Shown here: positions 18,928 to 55,482 of the stretch, piece after piece
Layout: each line of letters opens with the position of its first letter
Position numbering within the stretch: the stretch's first letter is position 1
NCBI GenBank assembly: GCA_036881865.1
Contig: JBAJNM010000001.1
Span: 22,847 to 86,846, forward strand
Length of the DNA: 64,000 bases
Source: Parvularculales bacterium
GTDB lineage: Bacteria; Pseudomonadota; Alphaproteobacteria; JAPOUT01; JBAJNM01
Reading direction: 5' to 3'
Program-made: the position numbers and the translations under genes
The notes under the pieces: model-generated
Told to the model about the DNA's origin: nothing
The model's input: only the letters and a program-made list of their open reading frames with translations
Database searches by the model: none

Positions 18928-20094
18928 ATGGCCAAACGTGATTTTTATGAGGTGCTCAATGTTGATCGCACCGCCTCTCAGAATGACTTAAAAAAGGCGT
19001 ATCGTACGCTGGCCAAAAAATATCACCCCGACCGTAACGCCAATAATCCGGAAGCCGAGAAGCACTTTAAAGAAATCAATGAAGCCTATGATATCTTAAA
19101 AGATGATCAAGCACGGGCAGCCTACGACCAGTTTGGTCATGCAGCCTTTGAAGGAGGTGGAAGGCCCGGCCAAAGCGGTTTTCAGAGCGGTGGTTTTGGC
19201 GCAGGGACTTCTAATTTTCCCGATTTTTCCTCTGTATTTGAAGATTTGTTTGGTGGTATCGGCGGTGGACACCAAAGTCCGCGAGGTCGTCGCGGGGGAC
19301 AACACCGCCGTGGCAACGATTTGCAGTTTGACATGACCATTTCTCTGGAGGATGCCGCCCGAGGCAAAGAAGCCCATATCAAAGTCCCCACCGCTGTTGC
19401 GTGTGATGCTTGCGGGGGCAAGGGTGCGGCCCCCGGCACAGAGCCGGTATCGTGTCCTACGTGTGGCGGGGCGGGAGTTACTCATGCCAGCCAAGGTTTT
19501 TTCACCATAGAGCGCACTTGTCCGCATTGTCAGGGCGGGGGACAAATTATTAAAAGCCCGTGCATCCAATGTCATGGACGCGGGCGGGTTAGCCGAACAC
19601 GAGAACTCTCAGTTAAAATCCCTGCCGGTGTTAGAGATGGCAACCGCATTCGCATGGCCGGAGAAGGAGAGGCGGGGCCTCAAGGGGGAACAGCAGGGGA
19701 TTTATACATTTTTCTGTCTGTCCGTCCTCATGATTTATTTCAACGGGATGGCGATAATTTGTTTTGCGATATGCCCATCACCATGACCACCGCTGCATTG
19801 GGGGGTGACATTGAAGTACCCACTTTGATTAACGGCAAAGTCCGGTTGCGTATACCGGCGGGCAGCCAGACAGGTCGGCGTTTCCGTCTTAAGGGACAGG
19901 GCATGCCAATTATGCGCTCAAGTGCTCACGGGGATCTTTATGTGCGTGTAACTGTGGAAACGCCGGTTAATCTTAGCGATAGCCAACGGGCTCTTCTGCA
20001 AGAATTTGCTGAAAGCGCGGGTGAAAAAACCCATCCTGAAAGTCATGGCTTTTTGCATCGAGTGAAGGAGTTTTTTGACGGGATTGGAGAATAA
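18928..20094 (+). CDS. dnaJ: chaperone DnaJ
   Basis: J-domain (HPD), G/F region, four CxxCxGxG zinc repeats and a C-terminal domain. Confidence 0.95.
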   Translation: MAKRDFYEVLNVDRTASQNDLKKAYRTLAKKYHPDRNANNPEAEKHFKEINEAYDILKDDQARAAYDQFGHAAFEGGGRPGQSGFQSGGFGAGTSNFPDFSSVFEDLFGGIGGGHQSPRGRRGGQHRRGNDLQFDMTISLEDAARGKEAHIKVPTAVACDACGGKGAAPGTEPVSCPTCGGAGVTHASQGFFTIERTCPHCQGGGQIIKSPCIQCHGRGRVSRTRELSVKIPAGVRDGNRIRMAGEGEAGPQGGTAGDLYIFLSVRPHDLFQRDGDNLFCDMPITMTTAALGGDIEVPTLINGKVRLRIPAGSQTGRRFRLKGQGMPIMRSSAHGDLYVRVTVETPVNLSDSQRALLQEFAESAGEKTHPESHGFLHRVKEFFDGIGE

Positions 20095-20131
20095 TGCAAC
20101 TCGTCTGACATTACGAAAACAGCGCCCTCCG

Positions 20132-21412
20132 TTAACCACCACCCTTAGCCTGATTGCATTTCGGACAGGCGACCTGTCCGTTAGAGACAATCGTCTTCCC
20201 ACCCTTGGTGTGCGGGACGATATGGTCAGCGTGCCACTCATGCCAACCAAGCTTCTCCCCACCACAATGCATTTTTATCTGGCAAACACCTTTACCCCGT
20301 CTAAAGATCGCCAGCCGTTGCTCATGTGAGAATGCCCGGGTCTCATCCTTGAACTCAATGTCAGGGAAATCAGAGAAGAATCGACGCTCGACATAATCCA
20401 ATCTCCCCTGAATAGATTCTCTCGAATCGGTCGAAGAGCTGGTTAACCCTTTATATTCGATGAGGCTCGGGTCCCGTTCTTCCTCGTCAAGATTATCGTT
20501 GTCCCTTCGCTTCTTTTCGAAGTCAATAAACCACTGGGACAGTTTGACCTCGGTTTCTTCATGGACATAGCGACCTATGAGAGTTGAGCCGAGGCAGTAG
20601 AGAGTGATCGCGTTGTAGCGTTCCAGTTCGGGCGTTTTTTCTGGAAAGGCCCGATGGAGGTAGTCAAGCACATGGATGACCTTCTTTGCATCCTTGCAGT
20701 TGTCATCAAACCGGGTGTTTTCCTGATACATTCGGTTCAAGTCGCCATCGCGAATACTGGTAGGTCCACCGGCTATCTCCAAGCAGATCATCTGAGCCGC
20801 CACAAGGTCAAATGTAAATCTAGAATTGGTGAACTTGCAGTTTTCGAAAAACGGATGCTCTGCTATCCTCTTCACGAAATCCCGCATCTGCCCTGACATC
20901 GCGTTCCGTTTCTCCTGAGCCTTCAGCGTGGTCCCGTTCTGCAAACGTAGGAACATCTCCCGCACTTCGTCTTCTTCATCCGTCTTAACGGCGTCCTCAA
21001 CGACAACCACATCAAGCACATATATGTCAAAGTTCCTGCGAAGATCAAAATCCAGATCATTATAATGTTTTCCAGCTATCTCATAACTTTTTCCAGCTTT
21101 ATTCACGTCAACGACTGGGTCAGCGTCCTTGGCCAATGGAAATTCGCCATCACAGAACTCCCAGAGAGTTCGAAGCCGTTGTTGTCCGTCAACTACGGCG
21201 AACTCGTGTTGTGAATCATCGTCCAGCCGTTGCCAGTACATTTTGGGAATGTCATACCCACGCAGAATAGTATCAATCAGAAGCTGTTTCTGCTTTTGTG
21301 TCCAAACGGGTGGTCTCTGGTAATCCGGGGTCGGATCAACTATATTTTTGAGACCGCAAAGCGTAGGGATGGGATATCTTTCTTTACTTGTCCGCATGAA
21401 GTAACTCCTCAA
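20132..21412 (-). CDS. DUF262 (ParB/Srx-like, DGQQR) N-terminal domain fused to a C-terminal Cys4 HNH endonuclease; GmrSD-like type IV restriction candidate
   Basis: N-terminus has DYQRPPVW...FAVVDGQQRLRTL, the DUF262 signature. C-terminus has C-x6-C...HADHIVPHTKGG...N...CPKCN, an HNH zinc finger. Own SD (GAGGAG). Convergent with dnaJ and not part of the core synteny. Confidence 0.8.
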   Translation of the reverse strand: MRSYFMRTSKERYPIPTLCGLKNIVDPTPDYQRPPVWTQKQKQLLIDTILRGYDIPKMYWQRLDDDSQHEFAVVDGQQRLRTLWEFCDGEFPLAKDADPVVDVNKAGKSYEIAGKHYNDLDFDLRRNFDIYVLDVVVVEDAVKTDEEDEVREMFLRLQNGTTLKAQEKRNAMSGQMRDFVKRIAEHPFFENCKFTNSRFTFDLVAAQMICLEIAGGPTSIRDGDLNRMYQENTRFDDNCKDAKKVIHVLDYLHRAFPEKTPELERYNAITLYCLGSTLIGRYVHEETEVKLSQWFIDFEKKRRDNDNLDEEERDPSLIEYKGLTSSSTDSRESIQGRLDYVERRFFSDFPDIEFKDETRAFSHEQRLAIFRRGKGVCQIKMHCGGEKLGWHEWHADHIVPHTKGGKTIVSNGQVACPKCNQAKGGG

Positions 21413-21694
21413 AACAATGAATTACAATCTTCCGTGAGCCTCAACATAACATCTAAAAAAAAGCCTTTTTCAAAAGCATTTGGCCTATTGCTATGACCAC
21501 CATAGCCCTCTACCGCCCAACTGTGGAAAACCATGATGTTATTTGGGTCTTTTTCTAATCCTTACCATTTACCAACCAGGGTACATCAATAATATTATTA
21601 AAAATCAACCCCTTATGAATGTCTGTTTGCCCAGCGCAACCACCCTACCTCTTAAAGGATTGGGGATAAATCTGTGGGTTTGTATTTTATGTTC

Positions 21695-21720
21695 TCAAAA
21701 ATATACGCCTTTTTAAAGGC
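21695..21720 (-). terminator. possible weak intrinsic terminator after hslU
   Basis: Minus strand reads GCCUUUAAAAAGGC followed by GUAUAUUUUU. The stem is short. Confidence 0.3.
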
Positions 21721-21738
21721 TTAAAGGATCTGCGTACC

Positions 21739-23067
21739 CTAAAGCACAAAACGGGAGAGGTCCGTGTTGTCTTTCAAATCACCTATATTGTGAGCTACAA
21801 AATCTGCATCCACCACAATGTTATCCCCGGTCCGCTCTGTAGCCGTAAAACTAATCTCATCCAAAACCCGCTCCAATACCGTATGCAACCGCCGGGCGCC
21901 TATATTTTCTACTTGCGTGTTAACCGCTACCGCAATATCCGCCAAAGCATCAATACCGTCCTCACTAAAAGTCAACGTTACCCCCTCCGTTTTCATCAGC
22001 GCTTCATACTGACGGATCAAACTCGCCTCAGGATCTGTGAGAATAAGACGGAAATCATCCCGACTTAACGGATTTAATGTCACCCGAATAGGCAACCGCC
22101 CCTGCATCTCCGGCAATAGGTCAGAAGGTTTAGCTACATGAAATGCACCCGATGCAATAAAAAGAATATGATTGGTACGCACTATCCCATGTTTGGTTGC
22201 TACCGTCGCACCTTCCAACAAAGGCAACAAATCACGTTGCACTCCCTCGCGACTCACATCACCACCAGCATGATCACTACGGGCACATATTTTGTCTACC
22301 TCATCCAGAAAAACAATACCATTATTTTCGACCGCCTTTAAAGCTTCTTGAGTCATCTGGTCTTCGTCAAGTAGATTATCCGCTTCCTCCGCCGTTAAAA
22401 TCTCATGCGATTCACTCACGCTTACACGCCGCTTGCGGGTACGTTGCCCCATGGCCTTGCCAAACAAATCTCCAACGTCAAACATACCCATCTGCGCACC
22501 CGGCATACCCGGAATATCAAGTGCCGCTAAAGGATTACGGTTGTCGGCTATCTCTATTTCAATTTCCTGATTGTCCAACTCACCGGCACGCAACTGACGG
22601 CGCACATTATCACACTCCTCACGGGAAGCATTTTTGCCCGCCAACGCCTTTAAAACCCGCTCTTCAGCACGAACATGAGCCTGTGCTCTTACTTCCCGAT
22701 GGCGCCGCTCCCGCACCATGGCGATGCCTTCCGCCACCAAATCACGAATAATCTGCTCAACATCCCGCCCCACATAACCTACCTCCGTAAAGCGGGTGGC
22801 CTCAACTTTAACAAACGGCGCTTGCGCCAACCGGGCCAACCGCCGCGATATTTCCGTCTTTCCAACACCCGTAGGCCCAATCATCAAAATGTTCTTAGGT
22901 AATACCTCCTCACGCAAATTATCATCCAAATGCTGGCGACGCCAACGATTACGCAAAGCAATAGCAACCGCGCGTTTTGCATCGGCTTGTCCAACAATAT
23001 GTCGATTGAGTTCGGATACAATCTCACGAGGACTAAAAGCAACCGAATCCGTAACTGTACGCATCAT
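21739..23067 (-). CDS. hslU: ATP-dependent protease ATPase subunit HslU
   Basis: 442 aa AAA+ protein with Walker [16 protein letters not shown]. Confidence 0.95.
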
Positions 23068-23086
23068 ACCCCTGCCTAACTATAAA

Positions 23087-23650
23087 TCAGTGAGCCCCTT
23101 CAATGCTCTCCATTGTCAACGTCTTGTTGGTGAAAACACAAATCTCAGAGGCAATATCCATAGAACGCCGCGCAATAGTTTCAGCATCCATAGACGAATC
23201 CATCAACGCCCGAGCCGCCGCCAACGCATACGCCCCCCCGGACCCTATACCCACAACACCGCCTTCCGGCTCCAGCACATCACCGGCACCCGTCAACACA
23301 AAGCTCGCCTGCTCATCGGCTACAATCATCATAGCCTCCAAACGCCGTAAGAAACGATCCGTCCGCCAATCCTTCGCCAACTCCACACACGCTCTCATCA
23401 ACTGTCCCGGGTATTGCTCCAACTTGGCCTCAAGGCGCTCAAAAAGAGTAAGAGCATCAGCCGTAGCCCCTGCAAACCCCGCTACAACATTTTGATCCGC
23501 CGCTCCCAAACGCCGAACCTTACGAGCATTGTTCTTCATAATAATGTTGCCGGTGCTTACCTGACCATCACCCACCATCACCAGCCTACTATCCTTGCGA
23601 ACACATAAAATCGTTGTACCATGCCACGGCGACGCACCAGAGGTTGACAT
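23087..23650 (-). CDS. hslV: ATP-dependent protease subunit HslV
   Basis: [20 protein letters not shown]...GDGQVS with the Thr active site. The track ORF extends to 23734, but homologues begin about 10 aa before GTTIL, so the start is placed at the internal Met (23650). Confidence 0.88.
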
Positions 23651-23875
23651 TTCAGAAAAAATCATAGCGCCAAAACCACATCCAAATGAAAAAAGAACTA
23701 TGCCCTTCATGTGGCTTTTCTTATCTCCGGTCAAGGGTCTTAGGCGTTTTTCATGGGAGATGGGCGGTTTTATAAGGAATCAGGCTGGCACAACCGCCCA
23801 AGACCTGATAGAACGCCTGAATATGTAAAGCAAATGGTGTAACATTAATCTGCCCTCAGGGAGCACCCACGGCCC

Positions 23876-24493
23876 ATGACTCAAAAAACGCCCGCTCGAA
23901 CCGCCCAGCTGGACCGGAAAACAAAAGAAACGCAGATATCCGTCAACCTTAATCTGGATGGCACAGGTCAATATGATATCAGTACCGGCATTGGATTTCT
24001 AGACCACATGTTAGAGCAGTTAGCGCGGCATTCTCTTGTTGATCTTGATGTAAAAGCCACCGGCGATTTGCACATAGACCAGCATCACACCACAGAGGAC
24101 ACCGGCATTGTGATTGGCAGCGCGCTAGCTAGTGCCCTTGGCGAATATCGGGGCATTTGCCGCTTTGCTCATGCTCTTATTCCTATGGATGAAGCATGCA
24201 CTCGGGTGGCGTTAGACATTTCTGGACGCTCGAGTCTTGTCTGGCGGGTTGACATGCCTCACGCAAAAGTAGGTGAAATGGACACTGAATTGTTTCGGGA
24301 ATGGTTTCAGGCGTTTGCTCAATCAGCCGGCGTGACACTCCATGTTGAAAATCTGTACGGAATCAACACTCACCATATTATTGAGTCATGCTATAAAGGT
24401 CTGGCTCGGGCGCTCAAAGATGCAGTAACTATAGATCCACGCCAGCAAAGCGCCTTACCCTCCACAAAGGGTGTTCTTGGTAGTGTGAGATAA
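23876..24493 (+). CDS. hisB: imidazoleglycerol-phosphate dehydratase
   Basis: [16 protein letters not shown]...GFLDHML...HHTTEDTGI motifs. Confidence 0.93.
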
Positions 24494-24526
24494 GTGGAAT
24501 AAAAGCCCATTTAGGAGAACGCCCAA

Positions 24527-25021
24527 ATGCGTAGTTATACAACTTACAAAAATTCTCTTATGGGATACGACGATGCAGGAACGTTTCTGATTAAAGAAGG
24601 TTTCAGTTGGTTTGGTATTTTTATTCCACTGTTTTTTCTTCTCTATCATAAAATGTGTCGGGTGGCAGGCGGTTTGCTGGTGACACGTTTTGGTGTTGAC
24701 CTTATCGGGGCTAGCTTGTTTAGCAAGTATGTAGCTGGTGTAGCACCTATGCTCGCCGATGCTATTAATGTGTTAATGGGTTATGAGGGAAATAATCTAC
24801 GCCGTTGGACTCTTAACCGATTGGGATATCGTATTGTAGCTGTAGTTGTGACCTCCGATTTGTTTCAGGCCGAGAGGCGATATTTTGCCAACAGCAACCC
24901 CTTGATAGGGCTTCCCCCCACGCAAACATACTCTCCTGAAAGCGTACGATACACCGTCCCTTTCCATAGTTATTATGAATCAGCCTTTGGTGTCTTTCCG
25001 CCATACGGCAGCGTTGTGTGA
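24527..25021 (+). CDS. DUF2628-like small membrane protein between hisB and hisH
   Basis: Two predicted TM helices. Conserved position inside rhizobial his clusters. Confidence 0.55.
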   Translation: MRSYTTYKNSLMGYDDAGTFLIKEGFSWFGIFIPLFFLLYHKMCRVAGGLLVTRFGVDLIGASLFSKYVAGVAPMLADAINVLMGYEGNNLRRWTLNRLGYRIVAVVVTSDLFQAERRYFANSNPLIGLPPTQTYSPESVRYTVPFHSYYESAFGVFPPYGSVV

Positions 25022-25737
25022 GTTCCGTCTCTGTAAACCATGTCTCCATGAACGATATTTCTGTCGCCATTATTGATTATGGCTCCGGCAATCTTCATTC
25101 TGCGGCCAAAGCGTTCGAGCGTGTAGCCCACGAACAGGGTGTAGGTGGTGCCGTTCAAGTAATAGCAAAACCGGAAGATGTCTTGAGAGCAACACGAATT
25201 GTGTTGCCCGGGGTGGGAGCTTTTGGAGATTGCCAAACAGGCCTTTCACAATATGAGGGCATGATTGAAGCTCTTACCGAATCTGTTGTAAAGGCTGGAC
25301 GACCTTTTCTTGGTATTTGTGTAGGTATGCAGCTCATGGCCACCCACAGCCACGAGCATGGTCGTCGTCATGATGGGTTCGGTTGGTTGCCGGGCGATGT
25401 TATAGCCCTTGACCCCCAAGACTCTCAGGTGTCACCAAAACCAAAAAAAGAAAGTATCGCCTTGCCCGTTAAGGTCCCACACATGGGCTGGAATAATTTA
25501 CGTATTCTTAATGGGCATCCGGTCTTAGAGGGTTTGGACAATACTAATTTCTATTTTGCGCATAGTTATCACTTAAAGCCCGCATCTTCTAAGCATCTTC
25601 TGGCAGAGGTTGACCATGGCAGGCGGGTGACAGCCGTTGCAGGGCGCGATAATATCATCGGCTTGCAATGCCATCCGGAAAAAAGCCAACATGCAGGCCT
25701 ACGGCTTATTCATAACTTCCTGCGCTGGACGCCCTAA
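25018..25737 (+). CDS. hisH: imidazole glycerol phosphate synthase, glutamine amidotransferase subunit HisH
   Basis: [19 protein letters not shown], catalytic Cys (GICVGMQ) and HPE. The true start is possibly at 25048. Confidence 0.9.
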
Positions 25738-25744
25738 GAGTCTC

Positions 25745-26491
25745 ATGGTTTTATTTCCCGCTATTGACTTGAAGGACGGGGCCTGTGTACGGCTTAAGCA
25801 AGGCGACATGGCACAGGCAACGGTATTTAATGATGCACCGGCCAAACAGGCTCAGGCGTTTGAGGGGCTGGGGTTTTCGTGGTTGCATGTTGTAGATCTT
25901 AACGGGGCCTTTGTAGGGCGGCCTGTTAATGATGCCGCCGTTGACGCTATCCTCGGAGGTTGTTCTTTGCCGGTTCAGTTGGGTGGAGGCATACGGGATA
26001 GAAAAACCATTGATATGTGGCTTGAAAAAGGCGTGCAACGTGTTGTTATCGGTACCAGTGCGGTGCGGGATCCGGTTTTGGTGCGGGAGGCAGCTCGTGA
26101 TTGGGAGGGTCGCATCGCGGTAGCGCTGGATGCCCGAGAAGGGCGTGTAGCGGTTGACGGATGGGTCAATGCCAGCGACCTTTCTGCCACAGAGATGGCG
26201 TTGCGGTTTGAGGACGCGAAAGTAGCGGCCATCATTCACACAGATATTGACCGCGATGGGGTTCTCACCGGCTTAAACATTGAGGCTCATGTTGCACTGT
26301 CAAAAACGGTTACCGTTCCTGTGATTGCCTCGGGAGGTCTGGCGGGCATGGGCGATCTTAAAGCGCTTAAAACAGCCAACGCTGAAGGCATTGTTGGTGT
26401 TATTGCCGGACGCGCCCTCTATGACGGACGGCTTGATGCCCGTGAAGCGCTGGCGTTTTTAGCTATCAATGAAGGCCAAACGCCATGTTGA
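25745..26491 (+). CDS. hisA: 1-(5-phosphoribosyl)-5-[(5-phosphoribosylamino)methylideneamino]imidazole-4-carboxamide isomerase HisA
   Basis: [17 protein letters not shown] start. The track ORF begins at 25637 inside hisH, so the start is trimmed to the internal Met. Confidence 0.9.
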
Positions 26492-43575: not shown

Positions 43576-44844
43576 ATGCAGAAAATGAAACTGCAAGAAC
43601 TAAAGGCCAAACAACCAACAGAACTCCTAGCTTTTGCCGAAGAACTGGAAATTGAAAATGCCAGTGCCCTGCGTAAACAGGATATGATATTTGCCATATT
43701 AAAAAAACTGGCCGAACAGGAGGTTAGTATTTTCAGTGAGGGTGTTGTTGAGGTTGTGCAAGACGGCTTTGGATTTTTGCGCTCAAAGGAAGCCAACTAT
43801 TTACCCGGTCCTGATGATATCTACATAAGTCCCAATCTGGTAAGGCGGTTTTCATTGCGCACAGGTGATACGGCAGAAGGAGAAATCACCGCGCCTCGCG
43901 ATGGAGAGCGTTATTTTGCCTTAAACAAGGTAACCTCTATCAATTTTGAAGACCCTGAAAAAACCCGCCATAAAATCCATTTTGACAATCTAACGCCTTT
44001 GTATCCCGATGAGGGAGTGGTCATGGAGATTGATAATACCGATGATAAAAAAGATTTATCAACCCGCGTCATTGATATTGTAGCCCCTCTGGGCAAGGGA
44101 CAGCGTGCCCTTATTGTAGCCCCCCCCCGCACCGGCAAAACAGTTCTTCTGCAAAACATAGCTCACTCAATTACGGCTAATCACCCGGAATGTTATCTGA
44201 TTGTGTTGTTGATTGACGAGCGTCCGGAAGAGGTGACTGATATGCAACGCTCTGTTCAGGGGGAGGTTATCTCGTCCACGTTTGACGAGCCTGCCACCCG
44301 TCACGTGCAAGTAGCGGAAATGGTCATCGAAAAAGCCAAACGCCTTGTGGAGCATGGTCGTGATGTTGTTATTTTGTTGGATAGCATCACCCGTTTAGGG
44401 AGAGCCTATAATACGGTGGTGCCTTCTTCCGGTAAGGTGTTGACCGGTGGTGTGGATGCCAATGCTTTGCAACGCCCAAAGAGGTTTTTTGGGGCGGCCC
44501 GTAACATAGAAGAGGGGGGATCCTTGACGATTGTATCCACAGCGCTGATTGACACAGGCTCTCGTATGGACGAGGTGATTTTTGAAGAGTTCAAGGGAAC
44601 CGGTAATTCAGAACTGGTGCTAGACCGAAAGGTAGCGGACAAGCGTGTGTTTCCGTCAATTGATATCCTCAAATCAGGCACCCGTAAGGAGGAGTTACTG
44701 GTGGACAAAGCAGCTCTTCAGAAAATGTACATTTTGCGCCGGATTCTTAATCCTATGGGATCGGTGGATGCTATTGAATTTCTGCTGGATAAACTCCGCT
44801 CTACCAAGACTAACAATGAGTTCTTTGACTCTATGAATACATGA
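43576..44844 (+). CDS. rho: transcription termination factor Rho
   Basis: 422 aa with RNA-binding OB domain, Walker A and Q/R loops. Confidence 0.97.
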
Positions 44845-44903
44845 AAGCGCTGATAATTACCACGACTATGGGTAGCGTTGTAGGCTAGTGCTAGTTACGG
44901 TTT

Positions 44904-45623
44904 GTGCTGGACAAACAAGCCTTATCTGGAAATAATAGGGAACAGTGTCTAAAGCGGAGCATGGAGTCCGTAGAAACCAGAGAAGGAGTATCCATCATGG
45001 TTAGCAATGTCTCTTACCCCTCTTCTGTATCCTCCCCTGTTGATTCCAAGGAGCGTGCAGTCTTTACTGCCATGGATCATAGTACGGCGGAAGATTGGAT
45101 GAAAATAGGTGCCGCCGCCCATCCCTTTCAGGCGGGGCTTGCTGATAGAGTTTTATCTCATCTTAAATTACTGGATGGTGATTTCGGGGGTTTTGCCGTT
45201 GACCGGTTAACTCACTCGCTACAATCGGCGACATTGGCTCACAAGGCAGGTAAGGATGAGGAATATGTTGTGTGTGCGTTGTTGCACGATATGGGCGACA
45301 CGCTAGGATGTTATAATCATGCCGATATTGCTGCAGCTGTCTTGAAGCCGTTTGTTTCAGAGAAAAACCATTGGATGGTTGAGAAGCACGGTATCTTTCA
45401 AGGCTATTATTTTTTCCATCATCTGGGTCTTGACCGGGAAATGCGCGAACAGTTTAGAGGCCATCCTCATTTTGAGTATACGGCGCAGTTTTGTCATTTA
45501 TATGATCAAAACGCGTTTGACCCATCGTATGAAACTATGCCGTTGTCAGCTTTCGAGCCGATGGTGAAACGGGTTTTTGAGCGTCCTAAAAACAGCATCT
45601 ACAAACGCGAAGCAGCTGAATAG
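44904..45623 (+). CDS. HD-domain protein (PhnZ/MIOX-like metal-dependent phosphohydrolase/oxygenase family)
   Basis: His/Asp ligand motifs (HSLQSA...LLHDMGD...H...H). The start is possibly the internal MDHSTAEDW. Confidence 0.65.
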   Translation: MLDKQALSGNNREQCLKRSMESVETREGVSIMVSNVSYPSSVSSPVDSKERAVFTAMDHSTAEDWMKIGAAAHPFQAGLADRVLSHLKLLDGDFGGFAVDRLTHSLQSATLAHKAGKDEEYVVCALLHDMGDTLGCYNHADIAAAVLKPFVSEKNHWMVEKHGIFQGYYFFHHLGLDREMREQFRGHPHFEYTAQFCHLYDQNAFDPSYETMPLSAFEPMVKRVFERPKNSIYKREAAE

Positions 45624-45650
45624 CAAGCCGTTTTATAGCATCAAGTAAGC

Positions 45651-45692
45651 AAGGCCGGACTCAGGAAATATGAGGCTGGCCTTTATTACTTT
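45651..45692 (+). terminator. possible intrinsic terminator after the HD-domain gene
   Basis: AAGGCCGGACTCA-ggaaata-TGAGGCTGGCCTT hairpin followed by TATTACTTT. Confidence 0.4.
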
Positions 45693-45829
45693 AGTAAGAG
45701 GATATTTGAGTTCCTAAATACAGATAACCAATACAATCTTGGGGAGATGTAAAGAGTGGTCGTGAATATGAACGGTTGGCATCGTGTAAGCTACACAAGA
45801 CAATAAAAAACTAGGAAACTCTCTATAAA

Positions 45830-48658
45830 ATGCGTTTGTCCTGGAATGAGATTCGTATCCGTGCCGCTGCCTTTGCTAAGGATTGGGAAGGTGAGGGCTA
45901 TGAAAAGGGGCAAACGCAGCTTTTCTACCGCGACTTTTTCAAGGTCTTTGGTGTGTCCGTCCGTCGTGTCGCCAGCTTTGAAGAGCCGGTTAAGAATTTG
46001 GGCGACAGGCGCGGTTTTATCGACCTGTTCTGGAAAGGTGTCGTTCTGGTTGAACAAAAAAGCATCGGGCGGAATCTTAAGAAGGCAAAGATACAGGCGT
46101 TAGATTATTTCCCGGGTCTGAAAGATACGGATCTTCCCCGTTGCATTCTTCTCAGCGACTTCCAGAGCTTTGAGTTGTACGATCTGGAGGAAGATGACGC
46201 GCTCTCAATAACGATTGCCGACCTGCCAAAACATGTGGAAAAATTCGGTTTTATTCTTGGAGTACAGAAACGCTCATTTAAGGATCAGGATCCGGTAAAC
46301 ATTCAAGCGTCCGAACTGGTCGATAAACTACACGACGCACTTGAGGATGTCGGGTATACAGGCCATGATCTTGAGCAGTTTCTTGTCCGCACTGTTTTTT
46401 GCTTATTTGCGGACGATACCGGCATTTTCGAGCCGCGCGATATCTTTCTTGACCTTCTGGAAAACCGAACCCGCGAGGATGGTTCCGACCTTGGCGGCTG
46501 GTTATCTCAGTTGTTCCAGATACTGAATACACCTGAAGACAAACGCCCCAAGAACCTTGATTTGGATCTTGCCCGCTTTCCGTACGTGAATGGTGATTTA
46601 TTCCGTGACCCTTTGCTGATCCCGTCTTTTGATACCGTCATGCGGCGCAAGCTGATTGATGCTTGTCAATTTGATTGGTCTGGTATATCCCCTGCGATAT
46701 TCGGTTCACTTTTTCAGTCGGTGATGGATAAAGATGAACGTCGTGCACAAGGTGCACATTACACGACCGAGAAGAACATCCTCAAGGTAATCGAGCCCCT
46801 CTTTTTAACCGATCTTAGAGACGAGTTTGACCGCCTCAGGGTCCGCAAGGACAGTCGACGTCGTGTCGAATTGCAGGCATTTCATAAACGTCTGGCCGCT
46901 CTGACATTTTTTGATCCGGCCTGCGGCTGTGGCAACTTCCTGATTATTACCTATCGTGAATTGCGGGTTCTTGAGATCGATTTGATCCGCGAGCTTCGCG
47001 CTTACCGCACTAGTGAAGACCAGCAAGAGCTGGACGCCGCTGATCTGTCACTTTTGAACGTCGATCAGTTTTACGGGATTGAGATTGGCGAATTTCCCGT
47101 TCGTATCGCTGAAACCGCGCTGTGGATGATTGACCACATCATGAACAATAGGCTCAGCTTGGAGTTCGGGCAGAATTTTGTGCGTATTCCGCTCAGGAAA
47201 TCGCCGCATATTGTCCATGGTGATGCACTGGAAACAGATTGGGCCAGCGTTCTGCCGCCCTCAAAATGCAGTTTCATTTTGGGCAATCCACCTTTTAGTG
47301 GTGCGAAGCATCAAAAGGACGAGCAACGCTCACAGGTTCACGCCATTGCGGCCTTGGGCAAGTCTGGGGGTACATTGGATTATGTCACTGCGTGGTTCAT
47401 TAAGGCAGGTGAGTATGTAAAAGGCACGTCTATACACATTGGTTTCGTGTCAACTAATTCCATAACCCAAGGTGATTAGGTAGCACAGCTTTGGCCAATC
47501 CTGTTTGAGCGCTACAAGCTGGAAATTACCTTTGCCCATCGCACCTTCGTCTGGGGTTCTGATGTGCGCGGCAAGGCTCATGTGCGTGTTGTCATCATCG
47601 GGCTAACAGAATCCAAGGCTGTTCCAAAGGATCGGCGGTTGTTTTCCTATGATGACATTAACGGCGAACCCCATGAAAGTGTACACACTGCCCTATCACC
47701 CTACCTGTTCGACGCAAGCGGCTTGTTTGATTCGCACATTGCGGTACGGGAAGAGAGCCAACCTATAAATGGTTTGCCGAAATTAATTACAGGATCTCAG
47801 CCAATTGACGATGGAAATTTCATTATAGGTTCTGAAGAATACCATCCATTGAAGAAAGAAAACCCTGAGTTTGCATCTTGGTTTCGGCCGTTTATAGGTG
47901 CACGGGAATTTATTCAGGGTTCAAAACGTTATATTGTTCACCCTGCTTCAATACCACCGCAGATAGCTAAAAAATTAAACGGATTGAGCAGGCGCCTTGA
48001 GGCCGTTCGAAAATTTCGTCATGCAAGCAAGAGAATATCAACAAAAGCGATTGCCGATAGTCCAGGCGAATTCGGCGTCACAGTCATTCCAGACGAGCCA
48101 TTTCTCGCGATTCCGCAGGTGAGCAGTGAACGCCGTCAATATGCGCCTATCGGCTGAATTAATCCGCCATTAATGCCGAGTGATAAGCTCCGTGTTTTAC
48201 TCGGCGCTACAAAACCTCTATTTGGCGTCTTAACCTCGTCAATGCACATGGCTTGGATGCGCCTTGTCACAGGGCGTCTGGAAAGCCGTTACATGTATTC
48301 TGTCGGCGTGGTTTACAACACCTTTCCAATGCCACCAGTTTCTGAATTTGTTTTAGGGAAATTGGAGCCTTTGGCTCAGGCCGTGCTTGATGCCCGTGCG
48401 GCGCACCCAGATTCAACGTTAGCGGATCTGTATGATCCCGACCTGATGTCATCGGTGTTGCGTAAAGCCCATCAGGCACTTGACCGCTCCGTCGACGGTC
48501 TTTACCGCAAACAGGCCTTTTCATCGGACCGTGAAAGAGTAGAGCATCTGCTGGCGATGTATGAAAAAATGAAAGCCCCTCTGGCAGATAAGAGTGGAAA
48601 GAAGACCATTGCAAGAAAGCAGACTACTAAGAAAATCAAAACACGAGTTGATTCATGA
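45830..48658 (+). pseudogene. MmeI-like type IIL/IIG restriction-modification enzyme (nuclease + N6-adenine MTase + TRD), inactivated by two in-frame nonsense codons
   Basis: ORFs 45830-47479, 47564-48157 and 48173-48658 share one reading frame. They are separated only by TAG (47477-47479) and TGA (48155-48157). N-terminal MmeI-type nuclease region (GFIDLFWKGVVLVEQKS). MTase motif I FDPACGCGNFLI and motif IV LGNPPF. Total 943 codons. Confidence 0.8.
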
Positions 48659-48700
48659 TACTTAAACTGAATTCAATAGACGGTTTTTATGAACTGTGGA

Positions 48701-49414
48701 TTAACGCATATGCGTATTGAAAAAATCTGCGGTACGATTGTTGGCGAGTTTAGCTGCAGCTTCATCAAAATGAGCCCCGCCCTGCCGTGCAAAGGCGTGG
48801 TCCTGGCCCTCGTAAACATGAATACTGGTGTGAGTATTTTTATCTAACCCGGCGCGTATCTGAGCCTGAGCCTCCGGAGGCACGAATTCATCTTTGGAAG
48901 CTATATGGAGCATAAGGGGATTTTTTATCTGCACTGCTTCTGTTAAATAGTTTTGAATGTTGACACCGTAATATCCAACACTGGTATTGATATCGGTGCG
49001 ACAGGCTGTAAGGTATGCCAGAAGTCCTCCCAGACAATAGCCCACTGCGCCAACTTTGCCTGTGCAACTATCAAGACTGCGCAGATGACTTATAGTATCG
49101 GCGATATCATCAACACCACCATCTACATCAAAACGTCCGAACAGGTCAAAGGCTTGCTGCCAGTCTTGCTCGTTTTGATCTGTGAGTTCAATGTCGGGTT
49201 CAAGCCGCCAGAATAAATCCGGACAAAGGGCTGTGAAACCTGCGCCGGCAAGATTATCGGCAATGCCACGTATGACGGCATTAACGCCGAATATTTCCTG
49301 AATAACAACAATACCAGGACCTCGTCCGCTGTCCGGTGTTGCCAGATAGCCGCTAAACGAACCGGCACGACCTTTGATAGTTATAGATGTTCCGCTCATA
49401 GGTGAATCCTTCAT
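48701..49414 (-). CDS. dienelactone hydrolase family protein
   Basis: DLH fold with nucleophile elbow GYCLGG. Start placed at the internal MKDSPMSG; the track ORF extends to 49576. Confidence 0.8.
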   Translation of the reverse strand: MKDSPMSGTSITIKGRAGSFSGYLATPDSGRGPGIVVIQEIFGVNAVIRGIADNLAGAGFTALCPDLFWRLEPDIELTDQNEQDWQQAFDLFGRFDVDGGVDDIADTISHLRSLDSCTGKVGAVGYCLGGLLAYLTACRTDINTSVGYYGVNIQNYLTEAVQIKNPLMLHIASKDEFVPPEAQAQIRAGLDKNTHTSIHVYEGQDHAFARQGGAHFDEAAAKLANNRTADFFNTHMR

Positions 49415-49457
49415 ATTTTGTGTTGCCAGATGAGTTTGGCGGGGGAAAGAGGCCTCG

Positions 49458-51494
49458 TCAAGAGCGGGGTCTGAGCGCCTGTATGATAGCCTCCGGCGTC
49501 TTAAGACGAGGCGTACACATCTGGCCACGGCAGATAATAACCCCGGCAGGGGAGGTGGAGTCATAACGCACAACATGAGCCGGTGGTGCGGCCTTTAGAG
49601 CAACCGCATGTAAAGATTGCGCGACCTTTCCTCCACACAAAGTTATCTCTACGGCGTTGAACAGTTGGTCCATACCGTTAAGAAAGCCCGCCATGGCAAA
49701 AGCATTGTTGGCAGAATCTCCTGAAAATGCCCGTGTGTGAGTTTCTGTCCGTGCTTGCCAGTCTGCCTCGTCATCAAGGGAGTTAAGACGTGCAAAAACA
49801 TCTACCATCACCCCATTGGCGGCCGGGGTAGCATTATCGTGGGTTGGACGGGTGTGCACAATGAGGGCTTCGGCATCGGAGGCGGTATAAAAATAACCTC
49901 CCCGTTCTTTGTCCCGATAGTAATGATCAAACAGAGTAAGCCAATCTGTTGCCGTGGCGAGATATTTATTGTCTCCGGTGGTCTCAAACAGCATAAGAGC
50001 AGCGCGTATCATGTTGGCGTAATCATCGGAGACTGCAAGCCCGCCGCATTTTCCAGCACACCATGAGTGATGCAACCGTCCATCTTGCATCATAGCATTG
50101 ACCACAAAGTCAAAAGCCTTGAGAGCGGCGTCAAGCCAGTCCGGCCTGTTGAAAGTAAGACCCGCCTGCGCCAAGGCCTGGATGGCAAGACCGTTCCAGT
50201 CAGCCAGCACTTTGTCGTCTAAAGCAGGGGCTATGCGTTGAGCGCGGACAGCAAACAAACGAGCGTGGGCTTCAGAAAACCGGCTTTCTGTTTCCTCTGC
50301 GAGTTCTGTGTCTTTTTTTGGGGATGTGTTGATGTCTAAGCGGTTTAGAATGTTGACATTTTCCCAATTGCCCTGGGGAGTTATGTCATAGGCCTTGCAA
50401 AAATCCTCTGCATCTACCCCTAAAACCGAGAGTACCTCGTCATAGGACCACGTATAAAACCTACCTTCACCTCCATTGCTGTCCGCATCAAGAGAGGCTG
50501 CAAACGCTCTCCCCGGCAGAGTCATCTCGCGTATCATCCAGTCTATAGTTTCACTAACCTGTAGCCGATAATGTTCCCTACCGGTGGTGCGCCACACTGT
50601 GGTGAGGAGAGAGACCAACAGAGCATTGTCGTAAAGCATTTTTTCAAAATGAGAGGCTAACCACCTCCTCGTCCGTTGAATAACGTGCAAACCCTCCCCC
50701 TAAATGATCATAAATACCGCCTGCACACATACCATCCAGAGCTCGCGTGACGGCATTTTGAAGATCTGTATCATTTGTGCGCACTCCAACCCGCCATATG
50801 AGTTCTAAAATCATCGGTTGAGGAAACTTGGGTGCTCCTTTAACGCCACCATGAACAGGATCCATGATGGTAAGCAAACGCTGCGCTGCTTTATCAGGTA
50901 GGTCTTGCATGGGTTCTACAAGAGGGGGTGCACTTTCTTTAAGACGGGAGAGATGGTGCAACAGGATAGCGTAATTTTTCTCTATTTTTCCGGAGCTTCC
51001 CTATAAAGACGGGCAATCTCCTCCAGTAAATTAACAAAACCGGGCCGTCCATAGCGAGGTGTTTTCGGAAAATATGTACCTCCGAAAAATGGCTCTCCCT
51101 TTGAGGTGAGAAACATGGTCAAAGGCCAACCACCCTGCTCTCCCAAACCATGAAGGGCGCTCATGTATATGCTATCAATGTCGGGACGCTCTTCACGGTC
51201 CACTTTTATATTGATGAAATGGCAGTTCATAACATCGGCAACGGAAGTGTCTTCAAAACTTTCATGCGCCATAATGTGATACCAATGACAGGCCGCATAA
51301 CCTACAGAAAGTAAAATGGGTTTATTGTCCGCTTGCGCTGCTGCAAGGGCATCAACCCCCCAAGGCCGCCAATGAACAGGGTTATCTTTATGCTGCCGCA
51401 GATAGGGACTGGTTTCTTGTTCTAAAAGATTGCTTGCCGTGTGGGTCATGATAGGTTCAGCGTTCATTTGACCGTATGCTGTTGTCGGATGCAA
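49458..51494 (-). pseudogene. DUF255 thioredoxin-domain protein (YyaL/SPATA20-like) split by two compensating frameshifts
   Basis: Homology continues across three ORFs (50982-51494, 50644-50961, 49458-50690) in frames 0, +1, 0. Breaks lie at an A5 run near 50975 and at GAGGAGG near 50665. Confidence 0.7.
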
Positions 51495-51508
51495 TCCTGT
51501 TATGATAA

Positions 51509-52843
51509 ATGAATAAAACCTCTACCATTGTCGCTTTGTCCACACCTCCTGGCCAGGGAGGAATTGCAGTGGTACGCCTGTCCGGTCCTCAAAGCGGAGC
51601 AGCCATTGAAGCCTTGACCGGCAAATCTCCTGCAGAGCCGCGCCGTGCGGTGTTGCGGTCTTTATATGATGATGCGGGTGCACTACTGGATAAAGGATTA
51701 GTGCTGTTTTTTTCTGCCCCTGCCAGCGCTACAGGCGAGGACATGGCCGAGTTTCATGTCCATGGGGGGCCGGCGGTTGTAGCGGGAGTTTTGGAAAGTC
51801 TTACAGGGTTATCGGGTATTGATCTTGCAGAGCCGGGGGATTTTACGCGCCGCGCTTTTGAAGCCGGTCGCTTGGATTTAACGGCGGTGGAAGGATTGGC
51901 AGATCTGATAGCCGCTGATACAAAAGCTCAGCATCGTCAGGCGGTGCGTCAGATGAACGGCGCACTGGCACATTTGTGTGATGGCTGGCGGGATCAGTTG
52001 GTGAAGGCGTTGGCGTATCTGGAGGCGGAGATCGATTTTCCTGATGAGGATTTACCGGAGGCTTTGTCAGCTGAAGTTGTATCTCCCTTAATGGCGGTAG
52101 TAGAAGATATGGAGCGTACGTTGAACCGTGTTGGAGGCGAGCGCATCCGTGAGGGTGTTCAGGTAGCCATCATAGGTCCACCCAATGTTGGTAAGTCTAG
52201 CCTTCTTAATGCATTAGCGCGGCGTGAAGCAGCGATTGTGGCGGACGAATCAGGCACCACGCGGGATGTTATAGAAGTTGCTCTTGATCTTGGGGGCATG
52301 CCGGTTGTGTTGTTTGATACGGCGGGCTTGCGGGAGGTTGAAGAGGGTGTGGAGGCGGAAGGTGTGCGACGGGCGCGCGTTAGGGCAGATCAGGCGGATA
52401 TACGCCTTATCATGGTGTCGGTGGAAACATCAGTAGAGGATGCGCGGGATGTTCTTGCTTTGCGCCGTTCTGGTGATGTGGTTGTTGTGAACAAACAGGA
52501 TTTGGGGAGGCACAACACTATAGAAGGAGCTTATCCGTTATCTGTTTTAACAAGTCAAGGTTTAGAGATGTTAGAAGAGGTATTGGTGCAAGCGGTTACA
52601 GAGCTGGCAGGTGAAGGGGAGGGTACTGTGGTGACGCGGTTGCGTCATCGGGAGGCGCTGGGGGCGGCACATAGAGCATGCGCACGGGCGCTTGAGGTTT
52701 TGTCATCGGGAGGTAGCGCCAAAGTAGAACTGGCAGCAGAGGATGTACGGCTTGGTGTGCGGGCGTTGGGCCGTCTTGTGGGTCGGGTAGATGTGGATGA
52801 TATTTTAGACGTTATTTTTCGCGATTTTTGCATCGGCAAGTAA
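51509..52843 (+). CDS. mnmE: tRNA modification GTPase MnmE
   Basis: G-domain (GPPNVGKSSLLN) and the C-terminal CIGK tetrapeptide. Confidence 0.95.
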   Translation: MNKTSTIVALSTPPGQGGIAVVRLSGPQSGAAIEALTGKSPAEPRRAVLRSLYDDAGALLDKGLVLFFSAPASATGEDMAEFHVHGGPAVVAGVLESLTGLSGIDLAEPGDFTRRAFEAGRLDLTAVEGLADLIAADTKAQHRQAVRQMNGALAHLCDGWRDQLVKALAYLEAEIDFPDEDLPEALSAEVVSPLMAVVEDMERTLNRVGGERIREGVQVAIIGPPNVGKSSLLNALARREAAIVADESGTTRDVIEVALDLGGMPVVLFDTAGLREVEEGVEAEGVRRARVRADQADIRLIMVSVETSVEDARDVLALRRSGDVVVVNKQDLGRHNTIEGAYPLSVLTSQGLEMLEEVLVQAVTELAGEGEGTVVTRLRHREALGAAHRACARALEVLSSGGSAKVELAAEDVRLGVRALGRLVGRVDVDDILDVIFRDFCIGK

Positions 52844-52892
52844 TCGCCGAACTGTTTTTGACGTATTCCATGGCTTCCGCTAAAGAATACTT

Positions 52893-54794
52893 GTGGATGC
52901 ACGGGCACATAATAACACTCCGAAGCGGCGTTTTGATGTTATCGTCGTTGGCGCGGGCCATGCAGGATGCGAGGCTGCTGCTGCTGCCGCCCGCATGGGT
53001 GCTGATACGTTGCTCGTAACCCATAAGTGGGAAACTATTGGAGAAATGTCTTGTAATCCGGCCATAGGAGGGTTGGGTAAGGGACATCTGGTGCGGGAAA
53101 TTGATGCGCTGGATGGTTTGATGGGGCGTGTTGCCGATGCGGCAGGTATTCAGTTTAGGCTTTTGAATCGTAGTAGGGGGCCAGCGGTGCGTGGGCCCCG
53201 GGCGCAGGCTGACCGTGCTTTATATAAGCATGCCATGCAGGAGACGCTGGCGACAGTGTCGGGGCTCAGCATTCATGTGGGTGGGGTGGAAGATATTATA
53301 AGAGAAGGCTCGCCGGACACAGAAGAACATGTGGCGGGAGTTGTGCTGGTAGATGGAACACGGCTTTTTGCCGGCGCTGTAGTTTTGACCACGGGCACAT
53401 TTTTGAGAGGTATGATTCACATCGGTTCGGAGCGTATTCCTGCCGGTCGAGTGGGAGACGCACCGGCGGTTGGATTGGCGCGTACTCTTGAAGAGCTGGG
53501 GTTTCCTTTGGGACGGTTGAAAACCGGTACCCCGCCTCGTCTAGTGGCAGGCTCTCTTGATTTTGACCGTCTTAAAGTACAACAGGGGGATAAGAAACCT
53601 ATGCCGTTTTCTTTTATGACAACGGAAATTACAACCCCTCAGACGGTATGTCATATTACGGAAACAACACCACAAACCCATGAAATCATTATAAAAAATA
53701 TAAAAAAATCGGCTCTTCATGCAGGCCAGATTGGAGGTCCGGGGCCACGCTATTGCCCGTCCATTGAAGATAAGGTGGTGCGGTTTTCTACCCGCGATGA
53801 ACATCAGATTTTTCTTGAGCCGGAGGGGTTAGATGATGACACCATATATCCCAATGGTATTTCCACATCTCTTCCGGCGGCAGTTCAAGAGGCTTTTGTG
53901 CGGACTATTCCCGGTCTTGAGAAAGCGGTCGTGCGACGTCCGGGTTATGCTATTGATTATGATTACGTAGATCCGCGCTCTTTATACAGAACGCTGGAAA
54001 CGAAGCGTCTACGAGGGTTGTTTTTGGCAGGACAGATTAACGGCACAACAGGCTATGAAGAAGCCGCTGCTCAAGGATTATTGGCGGGGGCCAATGCGTC
54101 CACGGTGGCAGGAGGCAGCGGCCATGGTGAGGGGCTGATTATTTCCCGCGCCGACGCTTACTTGGGGGTATTGGTGGATGATTTGGTCACCCGTGGGGTT
54201 TCTGAGCCGTATCGGATGTTTACCTCACGGGCTGAATATCGCCTGACGTTGCGGGCAGATAATGCCGATCAGCGGCTAACACCTTTAGGGATATCCCATG
54301 GCTTGGTGGGACCGGAGCGCGCCGCTCATTTTTCCGCTAAAATGGGTGTTTTGGAACAAGCGCAACAGACTCTGGAAGCGTTATCATTGACCCCTGATGA
54401 AGCGAGTCGTTATGGATTGGTTATCAATCAGGATGGTCGGCGGCGGGGAGGTTTGGCGTTGTTGGCGTATCCGGAGGTAACGGTAGCGCGTCTGGCGAAA
54501 ATTTGGCCTCAGTTGGAGATTATTCCGGTGGCCATTGCGACCCAATTGGAGTGTGAGGCGTGTTATTCCGGCTATTTGGAAAGGCAAGTAGCAGATATTC
54601 GGGCTTTTCGGCGGGATGAGGCGTTAAATCTGTCGCCAAAATTGAATTATGACCAGATTCCGGGTTTATCTTCTGAGGCTCGACAAAAACTGGCAACTAT
54701 ACGGCCGGTGACTTTGGGACAGGCGGCTCGTATTGAGGGAGTAACACCTGCCGCGCTAACAGCGCTTTTGGCCCATGTTAAAAAGCGGGCGTGA
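52893..54794 (+). CDS. mnmG: tRNA uridine 5-carboxymethylaminomethyl modification enzyme MnmG (GidA)
   Basis: [19 protein letters not shown] motif. 633 aa. Confidence 0.95.
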
Positions 54795-55479: not shown

Positions 55480-55482
55480 ATC

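Follow-up and report, generated by a model that had tools for sequence, protein, structure and literature searches.

An open reading frame encoding a DUF262 domain fused to an HNH nuclease domain (DUF262-HNH) is found on the minus strand between dnaJ and hslU, both of them housekeeping genes (Table 1), in the 64-kb window, i.e. the whole stretch of DNA analysed (64,000 nt). The open reading frame is intact, without any disruption. As a first-pass annotation made from the letters had reported, it converges with dnaJ, and a scan of the gap between the two stop codons found no terminator-like structure. No tRNA or ncRNA was found around the gene.

Table 1. Features of the DUF262-HNH locus (window coordinates)
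Feature	Position	Strand	Remarks
Gap between convergent stops, dnaJ / DUF262-HNH gene	20095..20131	.	37 bp
DUF262-HNH coding sequence	20132..21397	-	421 aa from ATG 21397; stop TAA 20132-20134
Cys4 zinc-finger HNH (His-Me finger) nuclease, C-terminal	20141..20269	-	Pfam PF01844
All-helical middle domain	20318..20884	-	about aa 172-350; AlphaFold2, 9 helices
DUF262 / GmrSD_N (ParB/Srx-like NTPase), N-terminal	20900..21331	-	Pfam PF03235, aa 28-171
Shine-Dalgarno-like GAGGAG	21405..21410	-	7 nt 5' of ATG 21397; read from sequence
AT-rich spacer, hslU stop to open reading frame	21413..21738	.	326 bp, GC 0.38

The mechanical open reading frame (20132..21412, minus strand, 426 aa) starts from TTG 21412. 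This frame and its own Shine-Dalgarno sequence had both been described before and both exist, but ATG 21397 is the likelier start, because the TTG overlaps the Shine-Dalgarno sequence, the ATG follows the GAGGAG by 7 nt, and the equivalent position, M(K/R)MSK, is the start of all homologues in the family alignment.

The spacer has the length and AT-richness first reported (GC for the whole window is 0.492), but it is situated upstream of the open reading frame, between it and hslU, and not after it. It presumably holds the promoter of the DUF262-HNH gene; a promoter scan detected no sigma-70-like site on its minus strand. A possible hslU terminator had also been proposed, and a weak terminator-like hairpin (21720-21707) is indeed present just past the hslU stop, inside the spacer, but such sites are no commoner here than in shuffled sequence. 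Promoter and terminator scans together gave nothing above shuffled expectation, an Rfam search of the spacer gave no match, and a six-frame check showed no long open reading frame in it. An independent short-read contig from the same strain stops within the spacer at position 21578, which could be a polymorphism or a mere assembly break.

The HMM search bears out the two-domain architecture first proposed, a DUF262 domain carrying DGQQR and a zinc-finger HNH in place of DUF1524. PF03235 (DUF262/GmrSD_N) scores 81.4 bits (gathering cutoff 33.2; E = 1.3e-22) and PF01844 (HNH) 37.3 bits (cutoff 21.4; E = 2.9e-9). HNH_5 (9.3e-8) and PF14279 HNH also match the C-terminal region, and PF07510/DUF1524 is not among the Pfam matches up to E = 1. 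With the DUF262 motifs defined as QRxxxW, DGQQR and FxxxN (PMC12065111, PMC4619093), motif I is Q27-R28...W32 and motif II is D70-G-Q-Q-R74 (nt 21190-21176), both invariant across the family. A motif III-like stretch, F149LRLQN154, is one residue longer than FxxxN.

The middle domain has no Pfam family match; its pLDDT in the AlphaFold2 model is mostly 85-97. By analogy with GmrSD, BrxU and SspE, it may serve as a linker for DNA binding or dimerisation (PMC12065111). Key residues of the HNH domain are C372, C378, C411 and C414, D391-H392 (in the motif ADHIVPH), N406 and N415. In the family alignment (47 homologues, 59-81% identity, motif residues kept over the full length) N406 is kept in at least 90% of the 47 and all the other key residues are invariant. 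The window copy retains all 91 family-invariant residues. The HNH domain aligns to D53/H54/N68/N77 of 4H9D (Geobacter HNH) and to the Cas9 HNH domain 8d2k, with the D-H, N and N residues matched in both. The HNH region of the AlphaFold2 model has a pLDDT < 50, i.e. the fold is not confidently modelled, and therefore no fold claim is made for this domain. The PADLOC profile REase_II (PDLC03418) matches the protein at 3.5e-19, and no PADLOC or NCBIfam model spans its full length.

The DUF262-HNH gene is one of two defence-type genes in the window and the sole intact one. The other, 24 kb away at 45830-48658, is an MmeI-family type IIG restriction-modification gene with two in-frame stops. An alternative genetic code as an explanation of these stops was rejected, since TAA, TGA and TAG all terminate ordinary genes. 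The description of every neighbour as housekeeping is therefore right for the flanks and not for the window. Likewise, the absence of a methyltransferase holds locally: there is no methyltransferase gene within 24 kb of the DUF262-HNH gene, and the only one in the window is the nonsense-mutated MmeI-type gene. An adjacent cognate DNA methyltransferase, as in a classical restriction-modification pair, is lacking. No ssp, dnd or nsnB/C-type genes are found beside the DUF262-HNH gene or elsewhere in the window. The window also carries a frameshifted yyaL, as well as parAB and mnmEG (an origin-proximal region), and the host is a deep-branching, pseudogene-bearing alphaproteobacterium.

The DUF262-HNH gene looks horizontally acquired, because its product is 63-80% identical to proteins of Hyphomonas, Ensifer, Bradyrhizobium, Sulfitobacter, Brucella and Marinomonas, whereas the nearest match of the host DnaJ is at 60% identity and HslU, 100% in the same strain, is otherwise at most 72% (Parvibaculum and others). 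Its codon usage is also mildly atypical (GC3 z = +1.9, length-adjusted rank 2/51). A homologue is present on a conjugative Rhizobium plasmid as well. Exact-sequence look-ups gave no record for either length of the protein (421 and 426 aa), for DnaJ or for P0013.

A scan of genome contigs with DnaJ gave 80 loci (best 60%), none with hslU or DUF262-HNH downstream of dnaJ, and in two relatives examined (HslU identity ≤72%) hslU is followed by other genes. A dnaJ-hslU adjacency was seen in no relative examined, close relatives being absent from the collections. Judged from gene order, the dnaJ-hslU junction is a lineage-specific synteny breakpoint or rearrangement junction. No meaningful direct or inverted repeats flank the gene, and no target duplication was found. 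Among 2.9 million viral contigs, a single-sequence scan gave 0 matches and a profile scan 2 distant ones; among 50,697 phage genomes there is no full-length match, only partial matches of 24-33% identity, all in phages of Bacillus and related Firmicutes hosts. Phage origin was rejected, as the family is nearly absent from both collections.

The family consists of 756 clusters at 50% identity (E ≤ 1e-30). Thirty-two homologue loci have at least 3 kb on both flanks, and 23 of these show defence-type neighbours within three genes (SNF2/DrmD-like, type III Mod/Res, type IIG, type I, BrxL). The other nine, about a quarter, are solitary. Solitary copies also occur amid metabolic genes, e.g. at locus L131. 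A SNF2 helicase is found 2-3 genes upstream at 14 loci, a type III Mod adjacent or nearby at 11 and a type IIG enzyme at about 15; these type IIG neighbours give full-length matches to REBASE-type RE-MTase models. The upstream neighbour is on the same strand within 100 bp in 30 of 54 cases. In Ensifer, Bradyrhizobium and plasmid p7 of Rhizobium sp. NLR16a the homologue starts 11 bp after Mod and overlaps Res by 4 bp.

Several arrangements recur. SNF2/DrmD-like, MTase_III, homologue and REase_III follow each other at L002-L005, L100 and L172, and the SNF2-type III Mod-homologue-Res order is also found on a conjugative plasmid. HKD-Snf2, a type IIG enzyme, the homologue and an ATPase (Hma/MADS-like) are found at L127, L148 and L134. 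The homologue is situated after BrxL at L136 and after HsdR at L088. The neighbours are N6/N4 methyltransferases, with no phosphorothioation genes. Thus many homologues are embedded in a methylation-based system, but the window copy is not. Solitary copies lend plausibility to the first-pass suggestion that the enzyme acts without partners, but the majority of homologues lie within, or are attached to, methylation-based systems of several genes. Joint arrival of the DUF262-HNH gene with the MmeI-like gene was rejected, because the latter is unlike the type IIG neighbours of homologues (sole match 26% identity, to that of L106).

Our preferred reading, held with a probability of roughly 0.6, is that DUF262-HNH is a single-polypeptide GmrSD-like anti-mobile-element nuclease, horizontally acquired and situated alone at a lineage-specific rearrangement junction. 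That different loci have different classes of neighbour favours an autonomous rider. Independent action has been described for GmrSD-like proteins that are embedded in BREX, Hma and type I systems (Picton 2021, as cited in PMC10952713; bioRxiv 10.1101/2024.01.29.577857). By analogy with BrxU, SspE and GmrSD, the DUF262 ParB/Srx-type domain would bind and hydrolyse NTP through the DGQQR pocket and act as sensor or switch. The helical middle domain may bind DNA and/or mediate dimerisation. The conserved catalytic residues suggest that the zinc-finger HNH would cut or nick DNA by means of D391/H392/N406/N415 and the Cys4 zinc site. By the same analogy the nuclease is probably modification-dependent, and its target would most likely be foreign-marked DNA (modified bases, type IV-like) and not unmethylated DNA, since the gene persists intact without an adjacent methyltransferase and its relatives ride with at least four classes of methylation system, as BrxU does with BREX.

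The tight operon coupling seen in Ensifer, Bradyrhizobium and p7 could instead mean a subunit and not an independent rider. DUF262-HNH would then belong, as integral nuclease subunit or as accessory, to methylation-based restriction systems (SNF2 helicase, methyltransferase and DUF262-HNH, in some cases also Res or an ATPase). It would cut unmethylated DNA, and the host would be protected by the partner methyltransferase. The window copy would be an orphaned remnant that is inactive or tolerated, or against which a methyltransferase encoded elsewhere in the genome gives protection; a partner methyltransferase could be present beyond the 64-kb window. This is consistent with the frequency of SNF2, type III Mod and type IIG neighbours, the closely spaced same-strand upstream genes and the REase_II match, and the decayed MmeI-type gene makes a decaying defence repertoire plausible. 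We nevertheless consider it rather unlikely. The partner class varies (type III with its own Res, type IIG, type I HsdR, BREX BrxL) and the nine solitary loci have no such partner. In addition, the window copy keeps its invariant residues despite pseudogenes nearby, and the MmeI-like gene of the window has no kinship with the type IIG genes beside homologues.

It is improbable, in our estimate, that the family is no classical type IV enzyme but a dedicated back-up nuclease that co-evolved with helicase-methylase systems (Hma/MADS-like, type III, type IIG) and functions as a one-gene system when alone. Such a nuclease might, for example, check whether the host system is intact or how the DNA is methylated, or respond to anti-restriction factors. 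Quite improbable, too, is an effector of the SspE/DndI-like or abortive-infection type, whose DUF262 domain senses a host-specific DNA mark (e.g. phosphorothioate) or another infection cue and whose HNH nicks DNA to arrest replication instead of restricting modified phage DNA, given that the ssp, dnd and nsnB/C-type genes are absent from the window and that homologues adjoin methyltransferases of the N6/N4 type. Finally, a selfish mobile HNH (homing-type) or a housekeeping ParB-like DNA-metabolism protein is highly improbable: HNH domains are common in homing endonucleases and the gene is solitary, at a rearrangement junction and near the origin-proximal region, but it interrupts no other gene, has no flanking repeats or target duplication and belongs to a family nearly absent from viruses, while the patchy HGT-like distribution, the defence-operon context of homologues and a separate canonical parB (56286-57257) speak against housekeeping.

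If the family is active, a compact one-gene module (about 1.3 kb) joins the GmrSD-like NTP-gated nucleases, one in which DUF1524 is replaced by a Cas9/McrA-type zinc-finger HNH. Abundant as the family is, it has no full-length model in PADLOC or NCBIfam, and a literature search found no experimental paper and no biochemical or phenotypic data on any of its members. As homologues recur within SNF2-methylase-(Res/ATPase) cassettes, the family lends itself well to validation by 'guilt by embedding' and to the question of how riders complement methylation-based immunity.

Similarities of DUF262-HNH with known systems involve different parts of the protein. Stand-alone Cys4 HNH nucleases (Geobacter Gme HNH 4H9D, Cas9 HNH, McrA-type) can be aligned to 45-55 residues at the C-terminus, with agreement in the catalytic/structural residues (D-H, N and N) and in the CxxC pair. 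This similarity is restricted to the nuclease core (E about 0.003-0.008), and these nucleases have no DUF262 regulator.

For the N-terminal domain the best PADLOC profiles are NsnA of Menshen (3.9e-29) and PD-T4-2 A (1.5e-14), both matches being confined to about aa 24-193. Like DUF262-HNH, these proteins combine ParB-DUF262 with a helical domain, and they too are without DUF1524, being DUF262 sensors. However, NsnA and PD-T4-2 A are nuclease-less subunits, whose partners are NsnB (ABC ATPase) and NsnC (effector), and PD-T4-2 B, respectively, whereas in DUF262-HNH the nuclease is fused in cis and no Menshen or PD-T4-2 partner genes accompany it. With no NsnB/NsnC match in the window, and dnaJ and hslU as flanks, the gene does not belong to a Menshen (NsnABC) system.

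SspE and DndI depend on DNA modification by sspABCD or dnd genes, which occur neither in the window nor beside homologues. Their nuclease is DUF1524 and not HNH. The kinship with BrxU and SspE first proposed is upheld by fold comparison of the AlphaFold2 model for the N-terminal two-thirds of the protein, which resembles the solved structures of BrxU (7P9K) and SspE (6JIV); 192 residues align to BrxU, middle domain included. PDB profile searches gave no sequence-level link to either protein, and only the fold comparison relates them.

GmrSD/BrxU family proteins, including HEC-05/HEC-06 (Payne et al.), show no sequence-level match beyond DUF262; for HEC-05/06 the values are only 1e-3 to 1e-5 over 30-55 residues. 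They are also larger (about 560-600 aa, compared to about 420 aa) and carry DUF1524 (PF07510) where DUF262-HNH has a compact Cys4 HNH (PF01844, Cas9/McrA-like). In overall design, however, DUF262-HNH is like them: a single polypeptide that begins with a DUF262 displaying QR and DGQQR, continues with a helical linker and ends in a His-Me finger nuclease, whose catalytic motif is (D/E)H(I/L/V)xP, here ADHIVP. Both are horizontally mobile, and relatives of both sit inside methylation-based operons of the BREX, Hma, type I and type III-like kinds.

The interval between dnaJ and hslU holds one long open reading frame, transcribed convergently with dnaJ at a distance of 37 bp. The first-pass annotation had described a 426-aa product with its own Shine-Dalgarno sequence, this convergence and an AT-rich spacer, all of which are found except that the length needs revision. 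A GAGGAG Shine-Dalgarno sequence, read from the sequence, lies 7 nt before ATG 21397, and since the TTG start overlaps it, the real product is most likely the 421-aa chain starting at that ATG. In an alignment of 47 sequences, the homologues all start at the equivalent position. The spacer from the hslU stop to the gene is 326 bp with 38% GC, as opposed to a window average of 49.2%. A short hairpin with a T-run is present directly past hslU (21720-21707). Terminator- and promoter-like matches around the gene are not commoner than in shuffled sequence, an Rfam search of the whole window gave zero matches, and no flanking repeats marking an insertion were found.

Features of the window and their coordinates
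Feature	Position	Strand	Remarks
dnaJ	18928-20094	+	flanking gene
DUF262-HNH ORF	20132-21412	-	single long ORF of the dnaJ-hslU interval; 426 aa from TTG
hslU	21739-23067	-	flanking gene
rho, mnmE, mnmG, rsmG, parA, parB	43576-57257		origin-proximal set
MmeI-family type IIG restriction-modification gene	45830-48658	+	Pfam MmeI_N, _hel, _Mtase, _TRD, _C; PADLOC REase_MTase_IIG 1.6e-211
yyaL/DUF255 thioredoxin-domain gene	49458-51494	-	three ORFs, two frameshifts

The protein shows a GmrSD_N/DUF262 domain at amino acid positions 28–171 (E-value = 1.3e-22, 81 bits, cutoff 33) and an HNH domain, PF01844, at positions 382–424 (E-value = 2.9e-9, 37 bits, cutoff 21); DUF1524 gives no Pfam match even at E=1. 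Thus the proposal that DUF262 is here joined to HNH instead of DUF1524 holds. No PADLOC model covers the protein full-length. NsnA of Menshen scores best (3.9e-29), ahead of one REBASE-derived type II REase model (3.5e-19) and then PD-T4-2 A (1.5e-14), all with top-scoring stretches within the N-terminal domain; only marginal matches come from HEC-05/06 and PtuB, and NCBIfam yields nothing but sub-threshold Cas9d/IscB HNH matches.

Alignment of 47 homologues (59-81% identical) displays 91 invariant columns. These include DUF262 motif I (D25-Y-Q-R-P29...W32), motif II (D70-G-Q-Q-R74) and an MFLRLQNGT block, the counterpart of motif III. In the HNH part C372, C378, D391, H392, C411, C414 and N415 are invariant and N406 is found in at least 90%. 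With HMMER the C-terminus aligns with the Cas9 HNH domain and the Geobacter HNH protein 4H9D, such that the D-H, N and N match D53/H54/N68/N77 of 4H9D, residues whose importance is reported in PMC4619093. The AlphaFold2 model (mean pLDDT 80.5) is confident over positions 1–350, where nine helices come after an alpha/beta ParB-like domain, and is unreliable over the HNH part (pLDDT <50). From the domain matches, conserved residues and model, the protein is therefore of GmrSD-like design: a predicted DUF262 NTPase is joined through a helical linker to a His-Me nuclease.

By word-indexed search, 2,266 proteins match at E<=1e-5, with a top identity of 80%. Profile matches among 1.84 billion cluster representatives, searched exhaustively, number 16,085 at E<=1e-3, 4,335 at 1e-10 and 756 at 1e-30; the top 150 are mostly 400-440 aa and align to the profile end to end. 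Source names are 'DUF262 domain-containing protein', 'HNH endonuclease family protein' and 'GmrSD restriction endonuclease...', and a literature search found no paper characterising the architecture. The family is widespread and already annotated, yet uncharacterised. Viral sequence searches show almost no viral carriage.

The host is an alphaproteobacterium of a poorly sampled, singleton lineage. Among 185,579 species representatives, no DnaJ is more than 60% identical to the host's and no DnaK more than 81%; its HslU is 100% identical to the same strain alone (NCBI contig of 151,486 bp; Logan SRR27962760), the next being 72% (Parvibaculum and relatives). In contrast to the divergent DnaJ and HslU, the DUF262-HNH protein has counterparts at 63-80% identity in Hyphomonas, Tateyamaria, Sulfitobacter, Ensifer, Bradyrhizobium, Erythrobacter, Brucella and the gammaproteobacterium Marinomonas, which indicates probable acquisition by horizontal transfer. 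A conjugative Rhizobium plasmid carries a homologue (64% identical). The window gene is only mildly atypical in its codon usage (GC3 z=+1.9; length-adjusted rank 2/51).

None of 80 dnaJ loci of relatives has hslU or the DUF262-HNH gene downstream. The his-hslVU block is common to the window and Parvibaculum-like relatives; in two relatives a convergent gene lies 41-63 bp past hslU, with Smr, MltA and Tim44 further on and, in one contig (L170), FxsA and SecB beyond these. In the window MltA-Tim44-FxsA-SecB is on the opposite side of the his block (33.2-36.4 kb), a gene order indicating a likely rearrangement with a breakpoint directly past hslU. As the relatives' gene order differs beyond both hslU and dnaJ, the DUF262-HNH gene sits at a lineage-specific synteny breakpoint. 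An independent same-strain short-read contig (L169), 100% identical to window positions 21578-25802, stops in the AT-rich spacer 160 bp past hslU; it may end there through low coverage, or because the sample is heterogeneous for presence of the gene.

The MmeI-type gene is the sole other defence-type gene in the window. Judged from two in-frame stops (TAG 47477, TGA 48155) in its one reading frame, it is a nonsense-mutated pseudogene. Its class is the commonest beside DUF262-HNH homologues, yet it is unrelated to those neighbours. One more window ORF, other than the seven examined one by one, gives a match to PADLOC candidate PDC-S48 (4.4e-36). Several intergenic gaps are long (about 430-1080 bp), which together with the split yyaL and the MmeI pseudogene hints at gene decay or indel errors in the host genome. 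The origin-proximal gene set suggests that the window is near the chromosomal replication origin.

Homologues adjoin varied systems. The closest (80%) is next to a type I system with an embedded Abi_C gene. In Ensifer, Bradyrhizobium and Rhizobium sp. NLR16a plasmid p7 the homologue lies between type III Mod (11-12 bp upstream) and Res (4-bp overlap), with a DrmD-like SNF2 helicase ahead; PADLOC scores are DrmD 1.5e-212, MTase_III 1e-201 and REase_III 2.7e-296. This four-gene arrangement forms a conserved mobile cassette (loci L002-L005, L100, L172) with NYN, recombinase or IS21 genes at its flanks, and no literature description of a type III variant with SNF2 helicase and embedded nuclease was found. 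The Marinomonas homologue lies in an integrase-flanked island, behind a gene for an MmeI/Eco57I-type enzyme of 1,296 aa. Neighbour clustering, which took in 80 metagenomic loci, shows an SNF2 helicase two to three genes upstream in 14, type III Mod in 11, type IIG/PglX-like enzymes in about 15 and type III Res in 5. Operonic upstream neighbours by Pfam are N6_N4 or Eco57I/MmeI methyltransferases, HsdR, ResIII, BrxL and SMC/ABC ATPases. Defence-type neighbours occur within three genes at 23 of the 32 loci whose flanks each span 3 kb or more, some of them near-duplicates, and at 9 there are none; one solitary homologue is behind a DeoC aldolase gene.

The main alternative, which the tight operonic coupling to methylase-system genes would fit, is a true subunit of SNF2-methylase systems, orphaned in the window. 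However, the partner systems are heterogeneous and the window gene is intact. Given that the partners vary, that some copies are solitary and that BrxU and HEC-05/06 set a precedent, we favour a family that would act as an autonomous rider nuclease complementing methylation-based immunity, the window copy being a solo instance. The gene persists with no neighbouring methyltransferase while other window genes decay, from which we infer modified DNA as its probable target. Of the first-pass view of a solitary, modification-dependent (type IV-like) nuclease or stand-alone anti-phage effector, the architecture, the GmrSD/BrxU kinship, an origin outside the host lineage and the defence character of the homologues' neighbourhoods are borne out.

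At some loci the order is HKD-Snf2, type IIG, DUF262-HNH gene, mad3/Ppl-like ATPase, the DUF262-HNH gene being nested or appended. This is the same Hma/MADS-like layout in which Payne et al. (bioRxiv 10.1101/2024.01.29.577857) found embedded GmrSD-like defences. Such helicase, type IIG methylase and ATPase sets are present at loci L127/L128, L134, L148 and L153, and in L126, L127 and L128 a conserved ~180-190-aa protein follows the DUF262-HNH gene. Reviews describe DUF262 either paired with DUF1524, as in GmrSD, BrxU and SspE, or lacking a fused nuclease, as in Menshen, Dazbog and PD-T4-2 (PMC10952713, PMC12065111). The protein shares the overall plan of the GmrSD family, DUF262, helical linker and His-Me nuclease, but falls outside its DUF1524-based definition, as a compact zinc-finger HNH here replaces DUF1524.
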